A stretch of 64,000 nucleotides of DNA from Vicinamibacteria bacterium (lineage in GTDB: Bacteria; Acidobacteriota; Vicinamibacteria; Fen-336), in NCBI GenBank assembly GCA_041493035.1, contig JBGPYB010000002.1:29087-93086 (forward strand). The letters are read 5' to 3'. The notes under the pieces are model-generated. The model was not told where the DNA came from. It ran no database searches and was given only the letters and a program-made list of their open reading frames with translations. Shown here one piece after another: positions 1 through 9,544 of the stretch. A program made the translations under genes and the position numbers. Every line of letters starts with the position of its first letter. Position 1 is the first letter of the stretch.

Positions 1-150
1 TCCGATGCTGCGGTTTCCCAACTGCAGCCAAGCAGAAGCATTGCTGCTGCAGCACTTTGGTCCCCGGTGGGCCGCACGGCACAGAGCGTGCAAAGTCATT
101 GGTCCGTGGACCAGGGCAACATTCGCTTCGAGTCTTCTTCGGTCGCGCCC

Positions 151-732
151 ATGCAAAGGAGGTGTGCCGTGATAGCAAAGAACAGTCTCCTGGGGCTTCT
201 CTGCGGGTTGGTGCTCGTCGCTCCGGTCGCTGCCGAGAACCGTATCGGGATCCTGGGAGGCGTCAACCTCGCAACCTTCCACGAGACGCCTGCGGAAGAG
301 GGCCTCTTGAGCACACGGACTCTGTTCGAGGCAGGGGCCGTCGCGGACGTGGGTTTGGGCGGAAACCTCTCGATCCGGTTCGAGCCCATGTTTCTGGTGA
401 AGGGCAGCGACGTGAGCTTCGCTCTGTTCGGTCCGCCGCCGTCCGCCCCGAATGGTGGCTTGCGGCGGATCAACCTGGTGGACCTTCGAGAGGAGCCGCG
501 ACCGCTTGGCTTCGCGTTACATGCCGACACTGAAGGGCGACGTTCTTGGTCAAGAACTGTGGAGGCAGGCCATGAGAACCCGTTCGCTGGGAAAGCGAGG
601 TTGACATGCGATGTCACGAGTCTCAAGGTCGCGGCGCGGGCCCAGTTTCGCCGCCCAACGACACTGCTGGCGGTTGGAGCGGGCGTACAATTGGGACAGA
701 GAGGGACCTCGTGTGGCACTCCTGGGCGCTAA
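151..732 (+). CDS. Putative outer-membrane beta-barrel protein (OmpW/OMP_b-brl-like), probably C-terminally truncated
   Basis: The internal Met at 151 gives a signal peptide, MQRRCAVIAKNSLLGLLCGLVLVAPVAA. It is followed by alternating hydrophobic beta-strand-like segments (RIGILGGVNLATF, LSIRFEPMFLV). The ORF ends GTSCGTPGR without the usual terminal aromatic strand, 10 nt before the DUF4160 gene. Confidence 0.3.
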   Translation: MQRRCAVIAKNSLLGLLCGLVLVAPVAAENRIGILGGVNLATFHETPAEEGLLSTRTLFEAGAVADVGLGGNLSIRFEPMFLVKGSDVSFALFGPPPSAPNGGLRRINLVDLREEPRPLGFALHADTEGRRSWSRTVEAGHENPFAGKARLTCDVTSLKVAARAQFRRPTTLLAVGAGVQLGQRGTSCGTPGR

Positions 733-741
733 CTTCTGTCC

Positions 742-978
742 GTGCCCACGCTGCTCGTGGTCGAAGGGTTCCGGTTCTGGTTCTACAGCAACGAGGGGCA
801 AGAGCCGCCGCACGTGCACGTGAGCAACGGTGGGGCTTCTGCGAAACTTTGGCTGCAACCAGTTCGCATCGCGTACTCACACGGTTTGACTCCGGCCCAG
901 GTCCGGCGCGCCCGGGAGCTGGTCTTTGAGCACCAAGCCTCCTTCCTCGAGAGGTGGCATGACTACTTCGGTCGTTAG
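742..978 (+). CDS. DUF4160-family protein, the first gene of a DUF4160/DUF2442 toxin-antitoxin-like pair
   Basis: GTG start. The 78-aa product carries the characteristic FRFWFYSNEGQEPPHVHV motif of DUF4160. It overlaps the start of the next gene. Confidence 0.7.
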   Translation: MPTLLVVEGFRFWFYSNEGQEPPHVHVSNGGASAKLWLQPVRIAYSHGLTPAQVRRARELVFEHQASFLERWHDYFGR

Positions 979-1207
979 TCCGCCGAATGCTCGCGCCCGG
1001 AGCATCGACTTCGTACCGGACGCTTTCGTAGTGCACCTCGAAGATGGTCGGTCACTCACGGTGCCCATCGAGTGGTTCCCTCGCCTTCGAGACGCGACGG
1101 CGGAGCAGCGGAGCCGCTGGGAGCTGATCGGTCCTGGCTTCGGCATCCGCTGGCCCGATCTGGACGAGGACATTTCTGTGGCGGGTCTCCTCGGCCTCCC
1201 GGACTGA
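959..1207 (+). CDS. DUF2442-family protein, partner of the DUF4160 gene
   Basis: The internal ATG at 959 overlaps the stop of the upstream gene. The 82-aa product is small and acidic and matches DUF2442, which is usually paired with DUF4160. Confidence 0.65.
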   Translation: MTTSVVSPPNARARSIDFVPDAFVVHLEDGRSLTVPIEWFPRLRDATAEQRSRWELIGPGFGIRWPDLDEDISVAGLLGLPD

Positions 1208-1359
1208 CGTCACCCTTCCGCCTGCGCACTTCTCTGACCCTGCTGACGTGAGCGCCAATGGCGCTGCGCCAATTGCGCCAATGCCGATCGTTGACTCGCC
1301 AATGGTGGGGGGCGTACAGTCGTGCCCGCGGCCTCCCTCGCGGCCGTCCAGGTGGGTGC

Positions 1360-2613
1360 ATGATGCGCGGGCTTGGCACGATGTTGCTGGGAGTCGCGAT
1401 CGCAGGCGGCCTGCAAGCCAACGAGGAGCGAGATCCTCCGCTGGTGATAGAGAGCGCCGTTGCCGATCTGGACAACGGGCGCCTCGTCATCCAAGGCCGG
1501 GACTTCGGGACGGAACGCCTCGGAGTAAGGCTCGCCGGACGGACCCTGAAGGTGCTCCTGGCGAAGCCCAGGCAGATCACCGCGGCCCTGCCGCCCGGAA
1601 TCGCGCCGGGGAGCTACCTGCTCGTCGTGTCCCTTCGCGACGGAGGCCGGAAGAGCAACTCATTTGCCGTGACCATCGGAGCGGTCGGGCCGCCAGGACG
1701 CCAAGGGCAAAAAGGCGATAGGGGAGATCCTGGGCCAGCCGGCCCTGCCGGGATACAGGGGCCTGAAGGGCCAAAGGGCGCTGAGGGTCAAACCGGTCCA
1801 GCAGGCCCGCAAGGTCCTCCGGGCATCGTCGGCGCGTTCGATAGTCTCGCGGGTCTTCCCTGCACGCGAGGCGGTGTTGTTGGGTCCATCGTTCTCCTCT
1901 ATGCGACCAACGGCGACGCAAGTCTTCGCTGCGTGTTGCCCGACGTCCCCCCCCCGCCTCCCTCGCCGACGCCCTCGACCCCAGCGGTCCTTCTCCTCAA
2001 TGAGGTGAATCCGAACATCGTCGACATCGCTGGTACCCGGGACCTGATCGAGCTGGAAGTGGTCAGCGCGGGCAACTTGCAGAACATCACGGTTCAGATG
2101 CGCTTCACCAGCCCTCTAGTGCTGGCCACCCTGCCCGACCTGGCGGTGTCGGCCGGCGATCTCATTCTTGTGCACCTCAACCCACTGCCAGGCTGGATCA
2201 CCGAGTCTGCTAGTCGAGGCGATTGCACGGATGCTTCATGCGTGGCGAGCGCTTGGGACGTCAGGGGGAATGCCACTAGCATTCCTTTCACTACCGGTGT
2301 GTTGCTCGTGCGGGCCCCTGACGGCACGGTCCAGGACGGCGTCTCGTTCACGACGGGCGGCAGTATCAACCCAAACTTTGCGACTGACCTCCAGTCGCTT
2401 CAGGCTCTGGGGCTCTGGAGCCCCGCGGACTGCGGTGGCTCACTCTGCACGCTCACGTCTACGCCAACCGCACTGGATATATCGGCTTCGTGGGCCGGAT
2501 CGGCAAACAACGCAAGCGGGAGCAGCATTGGCCGCCACCCGAATGCGCAGGACACCAATTCCGCCAGTGATTGGCAAATCGAATTCGCGACTTTCGGAGG
2601 CCCGAACCCATAG
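1360..2613 (+). CDS. Secreted IPT/TIG - collagen-like triple-helix - lamin-tail-domain (LTD) protein
   Basis: ATGATG start with a signal-like N-terminus ([20 protein letters not shown]). An IPT-like block follows (LVIQGRDFG ... SYLLVVSL). Then come 17 uninterrupted GXY triplets ([52 protein letters not shown]) and a poly-Pro linker ([12 protein letters not shown]). The LTD-like motif LLLNEVNPN ... DLIELEV comes next, followed by a Cys-containing C-terminal domain. Confidence 0.7.
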
Positions 2614-2693
2614 CAAGGGCTGCGGGCGGACTCCGGGATGGGTTGGTTGGGACGGAGACTCAAGATGCGCGGTGACTTAGGAGGTATTGGGCC

Positions 2694-3233
2694 ATGGTGT
2701 CGATTGGAAGGATGTCGTCAGTGAGTCTCTTGGTGACAGGTTTGCTGGGGTTGGCACCGCCGACCACACAATCAGCGCCCGCAGTTCAGCCCCCGCCGAC
2801 GACTCAGGCGGCGCCAGCGAAAGCGGCGCCTGCGGCAGCGGCAAACCCGCCCTCTGCCGGAGTCATCCAGACCCAGGAAACCAACACCCAGGGCGTGGTC
2901 GCCGATGTAACCGAGTGCAAACGGAAGGACGGGGTGTTGACCGTCAAGCTCCGCATTCGGAACACCTCCGGCGGGACAGTGTCGTTCTATACGGACCGAC
3001 TCCGCGATTACGACAAGGTTTATCTCACCGCGGACAACAAGAAGTACTTCGCCCTGACAGACTCGGAGAAGCAGCCTCTTTGGGGCAGCACGACAGGAAA
3101 TGAGTCCCTGAGTCCCGGCCAGAGCTACCGGTGGTGGGCGAAGTTCCCGGCGCCTCCTGCGGCGGCGAAGAGTATCAACCTGCTCACGCCAGTGGCTTCA
3201 CCCTTCGACGACGTTCCCATCAGCGACCAATAG
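2694..3233 (+). CDS. Secreted hypothetical protein with a Pro/Ala/Thr-rich linker
   Basis: An AGGAGG Shine-Dalgarno (SD) sequence lies 9 nt upstream of the ATG. The signal peptide is MVSIGRMSSVSLLVTGLLGLA. A low-complexity PTTQ/AAPA linker is followed by a beta-rich domain. A 1-nt gap separates it from the OmpA-like gene downstream. Confidence 0.55.
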   Translation: MVSIGRMSSVSLLVTGLLGLAPPTTQSAPAVQPPPTTQAAPAKAAPAAAANPPSAGVIQTQETNTQGVVADVTECKRKDGVLTVKLRIRNTSGGTVSFYTDRLRDYDKVYLTADNKKYFALTDSEKQPLWGSTTGNESLSPGQSYRWWAKFPAPPAAAKSINLLTPVASPFDDVPISDQ

Positions 3234-3234
3234 G

Positions 3235-3843
3235 GTGATGGCGAAACGACTGCTGGTCTCGATCGGAATACTCCTCCTACTCGCTCGCGCCGTCCCTGCG
3301 CAGGGCAAGTACCCAGACCCGGATTCGCCCGCCGTAGAAGGCGCGGCGCGTGCGGCGCTCGCCAACGCGAAGGTCTTGGAGGTCAAAGCCAAGGTTCTGG
3401 ACATCATCGGTGTCAGCCGCGGTCTCAGCGGCGTCATGAAAGACCTTGGGGCCAAAGTGACCGATCAGGAGATCACCATCGAGCTGGCGGCTGACTTTCT
3501 CTTTGACTTTGACAAGTACGCTCTGAGGAGCGAGGCCACCGACAGCCTCCGCAAGGTCGGAGAGGTCGTCAAAGCTTATCCAAGAGCGCCGCTGCTGATT
3601 GAGGGGCACACGGACGGCAAAGGCACGCATCCCTACAACATGACGCTGTCGGAGAGCCGTGCTGTCTCGGTGAAGAACTGGCTGGTGCAAAATGCCGGGG
3701 TCGATCCCGCGCGGATCACCACCAGGGGCCTGGGAGAAACCAAGCCCGTCGCATCCAACGCCAACCCCGACGGCAGCGACAATCCCCAGGGCAGACAGAA
3801 GAACCGGCGAGTCTCGATAACACTGCGTACACGCTCTAACTGA
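3235..3843 (+). CDS. OmpA-family (OmpA/MotB C-terminal domain) protein
   Basis: GTG or ATG start at 3235 or 3238, with a signal peptide. The C-terminal OmpA_C motif reads FDFDKYALRSEA ... LLIEGHTDGKGTHPYNMTLSESRA ... ITTRGLGETKPVASN ... NRRVSI. Confidence 0.85.
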   Translation: MMAKRLLVSIGILLLLARAVPAQGKYPDPDSPAVEGAARAALANAKVLEVKAKVLDIIGVSRGLSGVMKDLGAKVTDQEITIELAADFLFDFDKYALRSEATDSLRKVGEVVKAYPRAPLLIEGHTDGKGTHPYNMTLSESRAVSVKNWLVQNAGVDPARITTRGLGETKPVASNANPDGSDNPQGRQKNRRVSITLRTRSN

Positions 3844-3859
3844 TTGATAATAAGCATAA

Positions 3860-3902
3860 TATAGATTGGAACTCTGAATGACTAGATAAGTTCCAATCTA
3901 TA
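3860..3902. promoter_or_regulatory. Perfect 14-bp inverted repeat inside an 82-bp AT-rich intergenic island: candidate operator, or a terminator for the upstream OmpA-like gene
   Basis: The left arm tatagattggaact spans 3860-3873. The right arm agttccaatctata spans 3889-3902, with a 15-nt spacer between them. Region 3844-3925 is strongly AT-rich in a 68% GC genome. A TACAAT box at 3914-3919 lies 6 nt before the GTG at 3926, and no SD is visible. Confidence 0.4.
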
Positions 3903-3925
3903 GTAGTTAGAGTTACAATAGTCCC

Positions 3926-4972
3926 GTGAAAGCACGTTCGGAGATCACGCAATTCATCGCTGCTCACATCGCCGAGCAGCAGTCCGGTCTTGCCCGGATG
4001 GTCTCCGAGCGATTCGGAATCAGTCGACAGGCGGCGAATCGAAACATCGCGCGCATGGTGAAGTCTGGGCTCGTTCTTGCCCATGGCAAGACGCGTGGTC
4101 GGCAGTACCGGCTCGCGACCCTGGGTCGGGTGCATGAGACCTTGGCCATCACACCGGAGCTGCAGGAGGATCAGGTCTGGGAGCGCCGTGTGCTACCCCT
4201 GTTGCGCGACGCGCCCGAGAACGTGCGGGACATTTGCAGCTACGGCTTCACCGAGATGGTCAACAACGCGAAGGACCATTCGGGTTCGCCCACGCTACTC
4301 ATCTTGGCCGAGGTCACGGCGGACGGCGTCACGATGGTGGTGAGAGACGAGGGTGTCGGGATTTTCCGCAAGATCAAGGACGCTCTGCACCTGGAGGATG
4401 AGCGCCACGCGATCCTGGAGCTCACCAAGGGGAAGTTCACCACGGACCCGGAACGCCACACGGGCGAAGGCGTCTTCTTCGCGTCACGCATGTTCGACTC
4501 GTTTGGCATAGGGTCCGGGCGACTCGGCCTCCTTCACCGGCGCGACACCCAGGACTTCCTGAGCGAGGACCGGCCGGAACATGCTGGCACGACGGTGGTC
4601 ATGGAGGCAAAGTTCGTTTCACAACATACAGCGAAGGAGGTGTTCGACCGGTACTCGACCGAGCAGGACGACTACGCGTTCCAGCGAACCCGCATCGTGG
4701 TCGCTTTGGCGGAGATCGAAGGCACGAAGCTCGTCTCTCGTTCTCAGGCCAAGCGAATCCTCGCCCGGCTCGATCGGTTCAAGGAGGTGATCCTCGACTT
4801 CAAGCGGGTCGAGAGCGTCGGACCCGCCTTCGCCGACGAGATGTTCCGCGTATACAGGTGTCAGCACCCGCAGGTGAACCTGATCCCGACCGAGGCCAAT
4901 GAAGAAGTGCAGAGGATGATCCGGCGCGCAGAGGCAGCCAGACAAACCATGATTCCCGCCCCGGGCTCTTGA
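3926..4972 (+). CDS. One-component regulator: N-terminal winged HTH + GHKL/HATPase_c (RsbW-like) domain + C-terminal STAS-like DUF4325 domain
   Basis: GTG start. The HTH segment is LARMVSERFGISRQAANRNIARMVKSGLV. The GHKL ATP-binding motifs are NNAKDHSG and VRDEGVGI ... TGEGVFFASR. The C-terminus (LDFKRVESVGPAFADEMFRVY) fits the STAS-like DUF4325 domain. Confidence 0.7.
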   Translation: MKARSEITQFIAAHIAEQQSGLARMVSERFGISRQAANRNIARMVKSGLVLAHGKTRGRQYRLATLGRVHETLAITPELQEDQVWERRVLPLLRDAPENVRDICSYGFTEMVNNAKDHSGSPTLLILAEVTADGVTMVVRDEGVGIFRKIKDALHLEDERHAILELTKGKFTTDPERHTGEGVFFASRMFDSFGIGSGRLGLLHRRDTQDFLSEDRPEHAGTTVVMEAKFVSQHTAKEVFDRYSTEQDDYAFQRTRIVVALAEIEGTKLVSRSQAKRILARLDRFKEVILDFKRVESVGPAFADEMFRVYRCQHPQVNLIPTEANEEVQRMIRRAEAARQTMIPAPGS

Positions 4973-5022
4973 CCACGACGCCGAACTCCGCGCTATGCTT
5001 CCTGTTCGGGGAGATCGCCTTC

Positions 5023-6177
5023 ATGCCCTTCTACCACCAGCTCGGCCGTGTCCCACCGAAGCGCCACGTGGTGCTTCGCACGGCGGACGGGGCGCTATGC
5101 TTCGAGGAGCTGGTCGGGAACAAGGGTTTCACCGGGCCGTCGTCGCTGCTCTACCACCTCCGGCTTCCGACGGCCGTCAAGAGCGTGCGCCTCTTCCGAG
5201 ACCTCGCGTGGGCGCGGGAGGAGGACCAGACGCTGCGCCACCGGCACTTTCGGACGGCTTCCCTCGAGACGGGGCCGAGTGCCGTTCTCGACCGCGTGCC
5301 TTTGCTCTACAACGACGACGTCGCCCTGGAGATGGTGAGGCCGCGGCAGGAGGACGAGTTCTTCTACAGGAACGGCCAGGGAGACGAGGTCGTCTTCGTG
5401 ACCGAAGGCGAGGGGGTTCTCGAGTCGCCCTTCGGCGTGGTCGCGTTCCAGTCGGGCGACTACGTCGTGATTCCCCGCGGGGTGCTTCATCGCTACCGTC
5501 TCGCCCCCTGCCCCCAGCGCTTTCTCGTGATCGAGAGCCGCGGCGATGTGCGCACGCCGAAGCGATATCGGAACGAGCACGGTCAGATGCTGGAAGGCGC
5601 GCCTTACTCGGAGCGGGATTTCCGGCGTCCGGAGAAGCTCGAGACCCGCGACGAGGCCGGAGAATTCCGGGTCCTCGTCAAGGCCGCGAACCGCATCACG
5701 GAGATCATCATGGCTCACCATCCCTTCGACGTGGTGGGCTGGGACGGGTACTACTATCCGTGGGCCTTCAGCATTCACGACTTCGAGCCCAAGGTAGGCC
5801 GCGTCCACCTGCCCCCGCCCGTGCATCAGACGTTCGAGGGAGACGGCTTCGTGATCTGCTCCTTCTGTCCGCGTCCTTATGACTTCGATAAAGACGCGAT
5901 CCCCGCTCCCTACAGCCACCAGAACGTGATGTCCGACGAGGTCCTCTACTACGCCAACGCGGAGTTCATGAGCCGGAAAGGGATCGAGTATGGCTCCATC
6001 ACCCTCCACCCCGACGGCCTGCCCCACGGTCCGCAGCCAGGGAAGACGGAAGAGTCGATCGGCGCGAAGTGGACGGGCGAGCTGGCGGTGATGGTGGACA
6101 CGTTCAAGCCGCTCCGCGCGAGTCGGCAGGCTCTCGCCCTCGAGGATGCCGGCTATGCCTTGTCGTGGCTCGTATGA
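5023..6177 (+). CDS. hmgA: Homogentisate 1,2-dioxygenase
   Basis: Conserved HGD blocks are present, including HLPPPVHQTF, SFCPRPYDF and SHQNVMSDE. An ATG at 5023 has GGGGAG upstream. A TTG at 4969 is an alternative start. Confidence 0.85.
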   Translation: MPFYHQLGRVPPKRHVVLRTADGALCFEELVGNKGFTGPSSLLYHLRLPTAVKSVRLFRDLAWAREEDQTLRHRHFRTASLETGPSAVLDRVPLLYNDDVALEMVRPRQEDEFFYRNGQGDEVVFVTEGEGVLESPFGVVAFQSGDYVVIPRGVLHRYRLAPCPQRFLVIESRGDVRTPKRYRNEHGQMLEGAPYSERDFRRPEKLETRDEAGEFRVLVKAANRITEIIMAHHPFDVVGWDGYYYPWAFSIHDFEPKVGRVHLPPPVHQTFEGDGFVICSFCPRPYDFDKDAIPAPYSHQNVMSDEVLYYANAEFMSRKGIEYGSITLHPDGLPHGPQPGKTEESIGAKWTGELAVMVDTFKPLRASRQALALEDAGYALSWLV

Positions 6178-7067
6178 TCGCGGCCGCCACGTCATCGCTG
6201 CTCGCGTCCCTCGTCGACTACGCCGGGCTCTTTCCGCCGGCCGGTCTCGACACGGAGAAGGCGGTGGAGCAGTACGCGCGCCATCGCCGTTCCCCGGAGC
6301 GCTGGATTCTCGGACGCTTCGTCGTCCCGGCCACGCGCCTCGACGAGATGGCGACGGCGGCTGCGCCGTACCTGCCGACCCTTGGCGCGACGGATCCCTG
6401 GCGCGTGACGGCGCTCCTTGGGAATCGTCCCGCAGCCGAGGCCGCCCAGGCGGTGGCGTTTGGCCAACGCCTCGGCGGCCAGGCGGTCGTCGATTCGGTC
6501 GAGCTGAAAGGCTCGACGGTGGGTGAAATCGAGTCGGCCCTCGACGGACTGCCATCCGGCGTCACGGCCTACGTCGAGTTGCCGATCGACGCCGTTCTGC
6601 CGCCGCTTCTGCAAGCGCTCAAGGCCCGCGGCGCGCGGGCCAAGGTGCGCACCGGTGGGGTGACGCCCGAGGCGATACCGTCGCCGGAGCAGGTGGCCCG
6701 ATTTCTCGTTGCCTGCGGCGCAGCCAAAGTTCCGTTCAAGGCGACAGCCGGGCTCCATCATGCGGTGCGCTCCGTTCGGCCGCTCACCTATGCCTCCGAC
6801 AGCCCGCGAGCCACCATGCACGGCTTCCTGAACGTCTTCTCCGCCGCCGCCCTCGTCTGGCACGGCGCCTCCGTGGACGCGGTCGAGGCCGTGTTGCGAG
6901 AGGAGAATCCCGAGGCCTTTCGGATCGACGACGGCGGCCTGTCGGTGGGGGATCGCCACGTTTCCGCCGGCGATGTCGCCGCGTCGCGCGCCGAGCTTTC
7001 CATCGGGTTCGGCTCTTGCTCCTTCGCGGAGCCGATCGCCGACCTGAAGGCCCTCGGCATCTTGTGA
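6174..7067 (+). CDS. Uncharacterised protein translationally coupled between hmgA and fahA (297 aa)
   Basis: Its ATG at 6174 overlaps the hmgA stop (ATGA). Its stop overlaps the fahA GTG (GTGA). I recognise no family signature. The two Cys residues sit in VACGAAKVPF and GFGSCSF. Confidence 0.6.
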   Translation: MIAAATSSLLASLVDYAGLFPPAGLDTEKAVEQYARHRRSPERWILGRFVVPATRLDEMATAAAPYLPTLGATDPWRVTALLGNRPAAEAAQAVAFGQRLGGQAVVDSVELKGSTVGEIESALDGLPSGVTAYVELPIDAVLPPLLQALKARGARAKVRTGGVTPEAIPSPEQVARFLVACGAAKVPFKATAGLHHAVRSVRPLTYASDSPRATMHGFLNVFSAAALVWHGASVDAVEAVLREENPEAFRIDDGGLSVGDRHVSAGDVAASRAELSIGFGSCSFAEPIADLKALGIL

Positions 7068-8380
7068 TCGCCGCGATCGACGAGACCCACGCCCCTGCGC
7101 TCCGGAGCTGGGTCGAATCGGCCAACGATCCCGCCACTGACTTTCCCGTCCAGAACCTGTCGATGGGTGTCTTCCAGCGGAAAGGAAATGGAACGGCGGG
7201 CGTCGGCGTTGCCATCGGCGATCAGATCCTGGATCTCGCCGCCTGCGCCGGGCGCGGCCTCCTCCGCGGCCTGCCGACCGCGATCGAGGAGGCCTGTCGC
7301 GCCGCGTCCCTGAACGCCTTCATGGCGCAACCGGCCCGCCTGCGGAGCGCGCTCAGGAACCGGATCAGTCACCTGCTTCGTGCCGAGGGCGGGTTCGTGA
7401 CGGCGCGCAGCGAGGCCGCAGCGGTCCTTCTGCCGCAGGCCGAGGCTGAGATGCGCCTCCCGGCCGAGGTGGGGGACTACACCGACTTCTACGCGTCGAT
7501 CTTCCACGCGAGCAACGTCGGCGCCATGTTCCGCCCCGACAGCCCGCTGTTGCCGAACTACAAATGGGTGCCGATCGGCTATCACGGGCGCGCGTCGTCC
7601 CTCGTGGTCAGCGGCACGCCGGTGCGCCGTCCTTCGGGGCAGACCGAAGGGACCGACGGTGGGCCACCGTCGTTCGGCCCGACTCGCGCCCTCGACTACG
7701 AGCTGGAGATGGGAGCCTTCCTCGGGCCGGGAAACGACCTCGGAACGCCCATCCCTCTCCGTGAGGCCGCGGATCACCTCGTCGGCCTCTGCCTCCTGAA
7801 CGACTGGTCCGCTCGCGACATGCAGAAATGGGAGTACCAGCCCCTCGGTCCGTTCCTCGCGAAGAGCTTCGCCACGTCGCTCGGACCATGGGTGGTTACC
7901 CGCGAGGCGCTGGCGCCCTTCCGCGTCTCGGCCTTGTCGCGGCCGGCAGGAGACCCCGCTCCGCTTCCGTACCTGAGCGACGAGGAGGATGCAGCTCACG
8001 GGGGTTTCGACGTGCATCTCGAAGTGCGTATCGCATCGCGCGCCATGCGCGACGCGCGGCACCCGGCGATGACGGTGAGCCGTAGCCGTCTCCGCGACCT
8101 TTACTGGACGCTTGGCCAACTGCTCACTCATCACGCGAGCAACGGCTGCAACCTGCGCCCTGGGGACCTGATCGCCAGCGGCACCGTCTCCGGGCCGGAG
8201 ACGGAATCCCGCGGCTGCCTCCTGGAGCGGACGGGACGGGGGAACGAGCCGCTCACGCTCCCGACGGGGGAAAGGCGCCGCTTTCTCGAAGATGGCGACG
8301 AGGTGATCTTCCGCGGGCGCTGCGAGCGGGAGGGCTTCGTCTCGCTGGGCTTCGGCGAATGCCGCGGCGTGGTAGGTTAG
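7064..8380 (+). CDS. fahA: Fumarylacetoacetase (fumarylacetoacetate hydrolase)
   Basis: The N-terminal domain carries FPVQNLSMGVF. The FAH core carries DYTDFYASIFHASNVG, LGPFLAKSFATS, and a Ca/Mg-binding region. Start at the GTG at 7064. Confidence 0.85.
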   Translation: MIAAIDETHAPALRSWVESANDPATDFPVQNLSMGVFQRKGNGTAGVGVAIGDQILDLAACAGRGLLRGLPTAIEEACRAASLNAFMAQPARLRSALRNRISHLLRAEGGFVTARSEAAAVLLPQAEAEMRLPAEVGDYTDFYASIFHASNVGAMFRPDSPLLPNYKWVPIGYHGRASSLVVSGTPVRRPSGQTEGTDGGPPSFGPTRALDYELEMGAFLGPGNDLGTPIPLREAADHLVGLCLLNDWSARDMQKWEYQPLGPFLAKSFATSLGPWVVTREALAPFRVSALSRPAGDPAPLPYLSDEEDAAHGGFDVHLEVRIASRAMRDARHPAMTVSRSRLRDLYWTLGQLLTHHASNGCNLRPGDLIASGTVSGPETESRGCLLERTGRGNEPLTLPTGERRRFLEDGDEVIFRGRCEREGFVSLGFGECRGVVG

Positions 8381-8395
8381 GGACCGGAGGGAGCC

Positions 8396-9544
8396 ATGCC
8401 GAAAGTCGAGTCCCTCGGGATCAAGCGGATCGAGTCGATCCACTACTACGTCCACGACCTGGAGCGGAGCCGGCGCTTCTACACCGGGACCATGGACTTC
8501 GCGGAGATCGGCGGCAGCTCCGAGACGATGACACGCGAGGGCCGCGAGCAGTCCGTGGTCTTCATGGCGGGGAACTGCGTCGTGACCTGCATCGCTCCTC
8601 GCGGAGAAGACGGCCGCGCCGCGCGCTACCTGCGGAAGCATCCGGACGGCGTCGGGACGCTGAACTTCGAGGTGGAGGACGCGGGGCGCGCCTTCGCTCT
8701 TCTGGAGAAGCGGGGCGGCACGCCCATCGGCGAGATCCACCGAGAGAAGGATGGGAGCGGCGAGATCGCCTTCTTCTCCATAGCGACCCCGTTCGGCGAC
8801 ACCACGTTCCGGTTCGTGGAGCGCCGCGGTTACCGGTCGCTCTTTCCCGGCTTCGAGTCCCTCGAAGCACCTCGGGGCGGCGCCAACGCCTTCGGCTTCG
8901 TCGGCTTCGACCACGTCACCTCCAACTTCCAGACCATGAGCCCGGCTCTGCTGTGGTTGGAACACGTCCTGGGTTTCGAGCGCTACTGGGAGGTGCAGTT
9001 CCACACCACCGATGTCGCCATCGACCAGTCCCACGGCTCGGGCCTCAGGTCGGTGGTGATGTGGGACCCGGCTTCGGGGGTGAAGTTCGCCAACAACGAG
9101 CCGTGGCGGCCGTTCTTCAAGGACTCGCAGATCAACGTCTTCAACGAGCAGCACCGAGGCGACGGCGTCCAGCACCTGGCCATCGGCGTCAAGGACATCG
9201 TGTCGTGCGTCCGCGGCCTCCGGGTACGCGGTCTAGAGTTCATGCCGACGCCCGGGACGTACTACGACGCCCTCTCGGCTCGGCTCCAGACCATGGGCGT
9301 CGGCTCCATCGACGAGGACATCGAGCTCCTGAGGTCCCTCGAAATCCTGGTCGACGGCGACCGGGAGCACTCGTATCTTCTCCAGATCTTCCTGAAGGAG
9401 GCGGCCGGCCTCTATCGCGAGCCCGAAGCCGGGCCCTTCTTCTACGAAATAATCCAGCGCAAAGGGGACGAAGGATTCGGCGCCGGGAACTTCCGCGCCT
9501 TGTTCGAGTCCATCGAGCGCATGCAGCAAGGGGTGAAAGCATGA
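8396..9544 (+). CDS. hppD: 4-hydroxyphenylpyruvate dioxygenase
   Basis: The VOC-fold tandem carries FDHVTSN, QHLAIGVKDI, and the C-terminal EIIQRKGDEGFGAGNFRALFESIE typical of HPPD. Confidence 0.9.
   Translation: MPKVESLGIKRIESIHYYVHDLERSRRFYTGTMDFAEIGGSSETMTREGREQSVVFMAGNCVVTCIAPRGEDGRAARYLRKHPDGVGTLNFEVEDAGRAFALLEKRGGTPIGEIHREKDGSGEIAFFSIATPFGDTTFRFVERRGYRSLFPGFESLEAPRGGANAFGFVGFDHVTSNFQTMSPALLWLEHVLGFERYWEVQFHTTDVAIDQSHGSGLRSVVMWDPASGVKFANNEPWRPFFKDSQINVFNEQHRGDGVQHLAIGVKDIVSCVRGLRVRGLEFMPTPGTYYDALSARLQTMGVGSIDEDIELLRSLEILVDGDREHSYLLQIFLKEAAGLYREPEAGPFFYEIIQRKGDEGFGAGNFRALFESIERMQQGVKA

Follow-up and report, generated by a model that had tools for sequence, protein, structure and literature searches.

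The analysed window, a 64,000-nucleotide stretch of DNA from a Vicinamibacteria bacterium, harbours a group of three genes on the same strand, which we call P1, P2 and P3. P1 codes for a collagen-like protein, P2 for a small exported protein and P3 for an OmpA-like protein. The initial annotation presented them as a single surface cluster. The features that it described were recovered at their positions, with small corrections given below:

1291..1320, + strand: sigma70-like promoter match TTGACT-18-TACAGT, 5' of P1 (consensus scan, weak evidence)
1360..2613, + strand: P1, gene of the collagen-like protein, 417 aa (ORF list and gene callers)
1360..1419, + strand: P1 signal peptide, aa 1-20 (read from the sequence)
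1441..1677, + strand: P1 N-terminal IPT/TIG-like Ig domain, aa 28-106
1678..1839, + strand: P1 collagen region, 18 uninterrupted GXY triplets, aa 107-160 (regular-expression count and Pfam Collagen)
1840..1941, + strand: P1 post-collagen two-Cys beta-hairpin cap, a candidate module, aa 161-194, with C168 and C191 (AlphaFold2 and alignment)
1948..1983, + strand: P1 Pro-rich (poly-Pro) hinge of 12 residues, aa 197-208 (sequence)
1984..2610, + strand: P1 C-terminal domain of ~210 aa, PF26342 (TP_1001_2nd), with a lamin-tail-like Ig core
2679..3833, + strand: P2-P3 two-gene unit, as delimited by similarity to its closest relatives (blastn)
2694..3233, + strand: P2, exported protein with a Pro/Ala-rich linker and a C-terminal beta-sandwich domain (unannotated family)
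3235 (GTG) or 3238 (ATG)..3843, + strand: P3, periplasmic OmpA-C-like peptidoglycan-binding protein (Pfam OmpA, PF00691)

The same P1 ORF was called by independent gene callers on four assemblies. Its product is 100% identical to the protein P0001, and the identical protein is present in a JGI metagenome, two NCBI MAGs and a Logan assembly. A Shine-Dalgarno-like AGGTGG motif lies ahead of the start codon at 1360, and the promoter match slightly favours this start over an upstream ATG at 1258. No paralogues were found within the window. The GC content of the P1 region is 0.60-0.65, compared with about 0.67-0.70, and a DUF4160/DUF2442 toxin-antitoxin-like pair adjoins the region.

The first 20 residues of P1 comprise an n-region, a hydrophobic core and an LQA motif, with pLDDT values below 50 in the AlphaFold2 (AF2) model. 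Given this predicted signal peptide, P1 is likely to be exported by the Sec pathway. The N-terminal domain has an IPT/TIG-type Ig fold. The IPT/TIG assignment of the initial annotation thus holds at the level of the fold, but the sequence of P1 scores below the gathering threshold of PF01833 (16.0 bits vs a cut-off of 20.9, E 0.012); the homologue P0006 passes it with 22.5 bits. In the AF2 single-chain model, both the N- and the C-terminal domains are predicted with confidence.

The collagen region is indeed uninterrupted, with 18 triplets rather than the 17 first counted. It is the sole such run in all six frames of the window, and P1 passes the threshold of Pfam Collagen PF01391 (38.7 bits vs 27.2, E 8.7e-10). 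Its Gly codons are mixed. The absence of a DNA tandem repeat and the identical protein in four assemblies led us to reject an assembly or tandem-repeat artefact. Homologues of P1 harbour 17-23 triplets at the same place. The segment might nevertheless not form a triple helix, in which case P1 would be a monomeric exported protein with a Gly/Pro-rich flexible linker between two Ig-type domains. The short length of the run (54 residues), the absence of hydroxyproline from bacteria and the low confidence of the AF2 monomer across the collagen region are compatible with such a linker. However, the strict Gly periodicity is kept in homologues despite their divergence and their different numbers of triplets, and in many proteins the run leads into a dedicated, conserved cap. 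Furthermore, 11 of the 36 X/Y positions are occupied by Pro, and the run also contains charged residues, of a kind that stabilise bacterial collagens. As for length, BclA-type proteins can work with as few as about 17 triplets. We thus consider it quite unlikely that the GXY segment is a mere linker.

The cap is predicted by AF2 to contain strands at residues 167-170, 173-181 and 187-192, with pLDDT values of 78-83. In an alignment of 15 collagen-like proteins, several of which differ in their C-terminal region, its motif SFD.L.GLPC-T..G..G.I.L.Y...G...L.C is conserved immediately C-terminal to the collagen run. This two-Cys cap could represent a new kind of module for the trimerisation or registration of collagen. 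Most homologues have a Pro-rich stretch after the cap, and the poly-Pro hinge first noted in P1 was confirmed.

The C-terminal part of P1 had been divided into a lamin tail domain (LTD)-like module and a separate Cys-bearing domain. The two form one conserved unit of ~210 aa (aa ~205-417), for which PF26342 is the precomputed Pfam match in P0001 and its homologues; this assignment comes from the precomputed listing, without a reproduced score. The domain contains the Cys pairs 289/294 and 358/363, and there are three Cys pairs in P1 overall. Its invariant residues include E215, D228, E231, H272 and D300. Using phmmer, 316 clusters were collected for this domain family, and almost all of the 150 that were listed match over the full length. 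Across the family the domain is mostly found at the C-terminus of the protein, preceded by five TIG domains, 5-12 CHB_HEX_C_1/Fn3_assoc domains, CARDB, Big_5 or a subtilase, and its relatives include multi-Ig proteins of up to 2947 aa.

At the sequence level, P1 has no match to Pfam LTD PF00932 (E <=0.1), nor do its C-terminal half and seven relatives at E <=1, and NCBIfam likewise yielded no LTD match. Searches of the PDB with phmmer and with a 22-sequence family profile retrieved no lamin or LTD chain, only chance matches with E values around 0.7. The domain nonetheless has a lamin-tail Ig-like fold in the model. Since there is neither a PF00932 match nor a PDB relative by profile, the lamin-tail relation rests on predicted structure, and it is at this level, that of the fold, that the initial proposal of an LTD-like module stands. 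Some features of the sequence point in the same direction: the motifs NEV..., DL[IV]EL and the terminal DW...G..NP resemble LTD motifs, and the CHB_HEX_C_1 and Fn3_assoc domains that co-occur with the P1-type domain also accompany LTD. In contrast with LTD, the P1 domain is nearly twice as large, at about 210 aa, has Cys-loop and helical insertions, and belongs to a family of its own, PF26342.

P1 matches 27 PHROG families; among the 25 listed, 16 represent tails or tail fibres, with E values down to 6e-12. P1 might accordingly be viewed as a collagen-containing tail fibre, left behind or carried by a phage or a tailocin, and the lower GC content and the adjoining toxin-antitoxin-like pair would fit such an origin. 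However, all but one of the 25 listed matches fall within aa 99-179, i.e. the collagen run and its immediate flanks, and a phage origin was rejected on this basis. In addition, the flanks examined contain no genes for phage structural proteins, integrases or lysis, homologues of P1 are located among housekeeping genes, e.g. those of RuvX, YceG and NAD kinase, and a Sec signal peptide would be unusual for a virion protein. That P1 derives from a phage thus appears extremely improbable.

As initially described, P2 carries a signal sequence and a Pro/Ala-rich linker. It belongs to no Pfam or NCBIfam family. The copy of the window is devoid of a lipobox Cys, and a lipobox-like motif is present in 57 of 120 P2 homologues vs 4 of 69 P3 homologues. 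The OmpA-like nature of P3 was also borne out, with 79.7 bits vs a cut-off of 27.2 for PF00691 (E 2.1e-22). The peptidoglycan-binding motif GHTDGKG...YN..LSESRAVSV is conserved across the 69 P3 homologues, in the general form EGHTD.KG...YN..LS..RA..V, and the GRQKNRRV motif is conserved as well. The signal peptide of P3 looks cleavable, and the protein lacks a lipobox, transmembrane segments and a beta-barrel. Based on these features, P3 is predicted to bind peptidoglycan as a soluble protein of the periplasm and not to anchor a surface fibre in the outer membrane.

P3 shares with Pal, YfiB-YfiR, YiaD and TpgA the OmpA-C fold signature, the peptidoglycan-binding motif and a tight pairing with a small exported partner. 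Unlike those proteins, it is not a lipoprotein, and it scores below every NCBIfam equivalog cut-off (YiaD, 115 vs 175 bits; YfiB, 96 vs 128; Pal, 71 vs 125; TpgA, 42.5 vs 350). Its partner P2 is a beta-sandwich protein, possibly of the DUF4352 type (YcdA/YjhA), and not YfiR, CpoB or a trimeric autotransporter. Two other leads were set aside. PADLOC returned generic MotB/ZorB-type OmpA-domain matches for P3 and nothing for P1 or P2, and a defence-system reading was rejected. Putative P2 fusions, considered as Rosetta-stone clues, proved to be long ORFs without domains in the loci L054 and L055, apparently over-extended.

P2 and P3 form a conserved pair. A search of a collection with one genome per bacterial or archaeal species yielded 223 places with relatives of P2. 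In 75 of 80 P2 loci, from many phyla, P3 lies directly downstream on the same strand, and in one more it lies upstream. The gap between the two genes is commonly -4 to +36 nt among relatives; in the window, the 1-nt gap first reported applies if GTG 3235 is the start of P3, and it becomes 4 nt with ATG 3238, the choice of the gene callers. Conservation extends to the N-terminal part of P3, outside the OmpA domain, in about 50 loci. Neighbourhood clustering identified no third gene family in more than 8 of the 80 loci. P2-P3 is best regarded as an independent, presumably translationally coupled two-gene envelope module conserved across phyla.

Does P1 belong with this pair? The initial annotation took the three genes as one cluster, with a surface collagen fibre or adhesin held to the envelope through the P2 linker and the OmpA-like P3. 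The three genes are adjacent on one strand, with gaps of 80 nt between P1 and P2 and of 1-4 nt between P2 and P3. No terminator-like site was found between P1 and P2, and each of the three proteins has an export signal. A precedent in kind also exists for fibrous adhesins with an OmpA-like partner, namely TpgA with its trimeric autotransporter. The comparative data nevertheless speak against a single cluster. No match to the N-terminal, collagen or C-terminal domain of P1 was found within 6 kb in any of the 80 P2 loci. In turn, the 13 loci that carry P1-type genes or homologues of the C-terminal domain contain neither P2 nor P3. Such a lack of co-conservation is the very result by which the initial annotation said it would be refuted. 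The nearest homologues of P1 (P0002, P0004 and P0006) and nine further C-terminal-domain loci have other neighbours. Moreover, the closest relatives of the locus, L099 and L101 (~78% nucleotide identity), align by blastn only to positions 2679-3833 of the window, and six more distant loci align by tblastx only to ~2858-3831. P3 has no membrane anchor and, by its score, is not part of a TpgA-type system, and P1 has no recognisable docking motif. A joint fibre and anchor system thus seems very unlikely, and the proposed coupling to the OmpA partner did not survive. Judging from these gene neighbourhoods, P1 is functionally independent of P2-P3, to which it is adjacent without being co-conserved. 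It may be co-transcribed with them in this one lineage.

To place P1 among bacterial collagen-like proteins, we compared it with characterised members. Streptococcal Scl1 and Scl2 and Bacillus BclA combine GXY runs lacking hydroxyproline with a globular trimerisation or variable domain, and they form surface fibres or act as adhesins. P1 similarly has an uninterrupted GXY run with a flanking globular domain. The Scl proteins are LPXTG-anchored in monoderms, whereas P1 has no LPXTG motif. The head of BclA is a C1q/TNF-like trimer and differs in fold from PF26342. Against the Scl and Lcl equivalogs tested (NCBIfam NF038329, NF038330 and NF046116), P1 remains below all cut-offs, with 30.7 bits for SclB (cut-off 325), 23.1 for SclA (cut-off 400) and 31.9 for adhesin_Lcl (cut-off 500), and in each case the similarity is confined to the collagen residues.

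Lcl of Legionella pneumophila is a trimeric 'lollipop' in which a collagen-like stalk is joined to a globular C-terminal head; this head binds ligands and was proposed to initiate collagen folding (PMC11162425). By analogy, Lcl is the closest functional precedent for P1. Both share the order of signal peptide, collagen region and C-terminal head, and Lcl is also exported by a diderm. At the N-terminus, Lcl carries an amphipathic helix by which it attaches to the surface, whereas P1 has its IPT/TIG-like Ig domain at this position. The heads differ too: that of Lcl has an unrelated, self-trimerising fold, whereas the lamin-tail-like PF26342 domain of P1 is set off by the Cys cap and the Pro hinge. 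Searches of the literature on TP_1001, on collagen-like proteins with a lamin tail domain, or on collagen-like proteins in Acidobacteria returned nothing relevant.

Altogether, it appears reasonably probable that P1 is a stand-alone exported collagen-like trimer and P2-P3 an independent envelope module, i.e. two unrelated things side by side. We favour the view that P1 adds a new member to the bacterial collagen-like proteins and that, comparably to Lcl, it forms a lollipop-type trimer. The 18 GXY triplets of three P1 chains would most likely wind into a triple helix with a length of about 15 nm, and the two-Cys cap located C-terminally to the run would probably nucleate the helix and set its register. 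In the resulting trimeric 'double-headed lollipop', one end would bear three IPT/TIG-like Ig domains and the opposite end three PF26342 domains of the lamin-tail-like type, the latter set apart by the Pro-rich hinge. The collagen rod might act as a spacer while adding trivalency; the role of spacer is suggested by the wider family, in which the same domain is placed at the end of long strings of Ig-type spacers. P1 would then likely serve in multivalent binding, for adhesion or to a matrix, outside the cytoplasm. An exported collagen-like protein that bears an Ig-type domain at either end could reasonably be the surface fibre or adhesin of the initial annotation; its anchoring to the envelope through an OmpA partner is not supported.

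Where the trimer would reside is a related question. No anchor motif, LPXTG or secretion-system signal was found in P1. With a Sec signal only and no recognisable motif for translocation across, or anchoring in, the outer membrane, P1 might remain periplasmic, acting as a structural protein or as a spacer that spans the envelope. Its three Cys pairs would suit oxidative folding in this compartment, and the predicted rod is on the scale of the periplasmic width. We consider this rather unlikely, given that relatives of the C-terminal domain terminate very long multi-Ig proteins and that its partner domains, CHB_HEX_C_1/Fn3_assoc, subtilase and CARDB, are typical of extracellular proteins. Furthermore, folded collagen trimers of Lcl leave the diderm cell through the type II secretion system (PMC11162425).

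For the P2-P3 pair, we propose that a flexible Pro/Ala tether carries the beta-sandwich of P2, and that P2 and P3 probably form a complex linking a membrane or periplasmic partner to peptidoglycan. About half of the P2 homologues are lipoproteins. A broader scenario is tentative and on balance doubtful: P2-P3 would be an undescribed, phylum-spanning envelope system in which the tethered beta-sandwich docks on the OmpA-like protein and couples membrane to peptidoglycan, the collagen gene having been inserted upstream, and maybe co-transcribed, in one acidobacterial-like lineage.

The findings on P1 and P2-P3 do not overturn current understanding. Their main practical result is a caution, as adjacency in a single genome hinted at a three-gene system and comparative data disagree. 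P2 and its OmpA-like partner constitute an unannotated two-gene envelope module for annotators to name and a clean experimental target. Bacterial collagen-like proteins serve as adhesins and as recombinant biomaterials. If our reading of P1 is correct, its short collagen rod, compact two-Cys cap and modular heads would represent a new and possibly portable trimerisation cassette, in which collagen stands in for strings of Ig domains as the spacer of a lamin-tail-like binding head.

The interval 1360-3843 is filled by three ORFs, all on one strand, denoted P1 (collagen-like), P2 (linker/probable beta-sandwich) and P3 (OmpA-like). Their features are:

1360-2613, P1: ORF of 417 aa
1678-1839, P1 aa 107-160: collagen run of 18 GXY triplets, no interruption
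1840-1941, P1 cap: ~30 residues with two Cys, directly after the last GXY triplet
P1 aa 197-208: hinge
2694-3233, P2: 179 aa
3235 (GTG) or 3238 (ATG) to 3843, P3: OmpA-C-like (E 2.1e-22)

Independent pipelines agree on the P1 ORF in contigs from a JGI metagenome and two NCBI MAGs as well as in a Logan assembly. A sigma70-like promoter match (1291-1320) and an AGGTGG motif close upstream argue for a start at 1360 rather than at the ATG at 1258, and the N-terminus of P1 is a typical signal sequence. The GXY run, the only one across all frames of the window, passes the Pfam Collagen cut-off (E 8.7e-10; 38.7 bits vs 27.2). That it might be an assembly artefact was rejected, since its Gly codons are mixed, Tandem Repeats Finder detected no DNA repeat there and identical copies exist in four assemblies.

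An AlphaFold2 model of P1, built from an alignment of 30 sequences (mean pLDDT 82), showed a confident beta-sandwich at aa 28-106 and a confident domain from ~aa 205 to 417. Between them, a small beta-hairpin module occupies aa 165-192 (pLDDT ~80), and confidence is low over the collagen, as would be expected when only one chain is modelled. The six Cys residues fall into three pairs (168/191, 289/294 and 358/363). The Pfam TIG match of P1 is sub-threshold (E 0.012; 16 bits vs 20.9); P0006, a homologue of the same architecture and 40% identity, passes with 22.5 bits.

The initial annotation had distinguished a lamin-tail-domain (LTD)-like module from a Cys-bearing C-terminal domain. Both are present, but as a single domain, because nearly all the matches listed run over its full ~210 residues. 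The matches come from scanning 1.84 billion representative proteins in full with phmmer, which yielded 316 clusters at E <=1e-3 (88 at <=1e-30), 150 of which were listed. Among the latter, the domain is usually at the extreme C-terminus of proteins of 200-2947 aa, and only six harbour GXY runs. In precomputed Pfam annotation, the database protein identical to P1 has its C-terminal half assigned to PF26342 ('TP_1001_2nd'). Pfam LTD (PF00932) has no sequence match in P1 or seven relatives, a family profile detected no PDB relative, and the NCBIfam Solibacter C-terminal domain matches P1 weakly. The domain is a lamin-tail-like core with Cys-loop insertions. Its invariant residues (E215, D228, E231, H272, W299, D300, W353 and W405) suggest a conserved putative binding site. 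In relatives, PF26342 is preceded by five TIG domains, 5-12 CHB_HEX_C_1/Fn3_assoc domains, CARDB, Big_5 or subtilase; such strings of Ig-type spacers are typical of extracellular proteins. In Myxococcus xanthus (CP017170, locus L089, 6001-11146), a Big_5 + PF26342 protein, P0015, is encoded among a series of genes for secreted proteins (Big_5/Big_7, PEGA, Peptidase_M64), directly upstream of a gene whose product combines He_PIG, Exo_endo_phos and a canonical LTD. This locus is a genetically tractable site for studying the PF26342 domain.

The cap has no Pfam family. Its motif, SFD.L.GLPC-T..G..G.I.L.Y...G...L.C plus a subsequent Pro-rich stretch, recurs behind the collagen run in an alignment of 15 collagen-like proteins from metagenomes, with P0002-P0006, P0017, P0022, P0023, P0060, P0071, P0077 and P0102 among the carriers. 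These differ in their other domains: Calx-beta occurs in one and PEGA in two, and several lack any annotated head. Because collagen helices require a neighbouring nucleation domain, the ~30-residue hairpin appears to be a candidate collagen trimerisation or registration module. The Legionella pneumophila collagen-like protein Lcl exemplifies this reasoning (PMC11162425).

P2 matches nothing in Pfam, NCBIfam or PHROG; a homology search gave 228 homologues. An N-terminal signal and a Pro/Ala linker precede a ~120-aa domain marked by two motifs, WWAKFPAPP and PFDDVPI (the latter PFEDVPI in the family consensus). A lipobox-like motif occurs in 57 of 120 homologues and is absent from the P2 of the window. 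P2 would be a beta-sandwich protein on a tether, in many homologues a lipoprotein. P3 has a signal peptide, intact peptidoglycan-binding motifs and no lipobox, and scores under the respective cut-offs of the NCBIfam equivalogs (YiaD, YfiB, Pal, TpgA and others). Its sequence features indicate a soluble peptidoglycan binder.

The three genes had been proposed to form one OmpA-coupled surface system, which their distribution contradicts. Scanning the P2 alignment against one genome per GTDB species found 223 relatives, and 80 loci were kept. The relatives belong to Acidobacteriota, Alpha-, Beta- and Gammaproteobacteria, Gemmatimonadota, Campylobacterota, Methylomirabilota, Eremiobacterota and Desulfobacterota. 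A P3 homologue lies directly downstream on the same strand in 75 of the 80 loci; among the exceptions, P3 is upstream in one, and another lies on a contig that stops short. The P3 N-terminus outside the OmpA part is also conserved in ~50 loci. None of the 80 has a match to the N-terminal domain, collagen or C-terminal domain of P1, nor to the downstream DUF4325 gene, and all-against-all clustering of flanking ORFs found no further family in more than eight. Conversely, neither P2 nor P3 was found near the nearest P1 homologues, P0002 (adjoining RuvX/YceG and Peptidase_M23), P0004 (DUF5122 genes) and P0006 (a tandem paralogue), or at nine more C-terminal-domain loci. For P2 and P3, Candidatus Acidiferrum and other Acidobacteriota give the best matches; taken with the weak Solibacter match of P1, this points to a high-GC acidobacterial MAG (GCA_041484345.1). 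The closest P2-P3 relatives (amino-acid identity 66-77% for P2 and 81-83% for P3; ~78% at the nucleotide level) align to the window solely over 2679-3833 and have unrelated genes upstream, so the three-gene unit is not conserved.

An Acidobacteriaceae MAG (L011) has two P2-family copies ~0.8 kb apart (4878-5303 and 6145-6534), both upstream of a single P3 homologue, and a soil metagenome contig (L088) carries two tandem paralogues (880-2121 and 2195-3412), each complete with TIG, collagen, cap and PF26342.

Directly upstream of P1, a DUF4160 gene (742-978) overlaps a DUF2442 gene (926-1207); the two look like a small toxin-antitoxin pair and include a weak match to the DhiT toxin of NCBIfam. 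The spacer that leads from the P3 stop to the next gene is unusually AT-rich (GC ~0.55) and contains a 17-nt inverted repeat (3857-3905, 94% complementary, TAATATAGATTGGAACT / AGTTCCAATCTATAGTA) that could be an operator or terminator hairpin. The gene at 3926-4972 codes for an HTH (MarR-like) region, a histidine-kinase-like ATPase region and a DUF4325 STAS-like domain. A tyrosine/homogentisate catabolism cluster (4969-9544) follows:

4969-6177: HgmA-like dioxygenase
7016-8380: fumarylacetoacetate hydrolase
8396-9544: glyoxalase/4-HPPD-like gene

The GC content of window positions 1-5000 (0.60-0.65) is somewhat under that of the rest (~0.66-0.70), which would fit a variable or accessory region.

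The features initially described were thus borne out with minor corrections, and of their interpretation the collagen fibre protein stands. P1 would be an independent gene whose product is an exported homotrimeric collagen-stalk protein ~15 nm long, bearing three IPT/TIG-like domains at one end and, across the hinge, three lamin-tail-like PF26342 heads at the opposite end, and acting as a trivalent binding or adhesive molecule. Its design is analogous to that of Lcl, but the end domains differ. P2 and P3 would be a separate, translationally coupled envelope pair, plausibly acting as a complex; the acidobacterial host would be diderm. Because the 80-nt spacer after P1 has no terminator-like site, P1 may be co-transcribed with P2-P3 in this lineage; such a juxtaposition would be specific to the lineage. 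P1 is a new, uncharacterised bacterial collagen-like protein whose domains all have existing Pfam families; more original are two by-products of the analysis, the P2-P3 module, which lacks annotation, and the cap behind the collagen.
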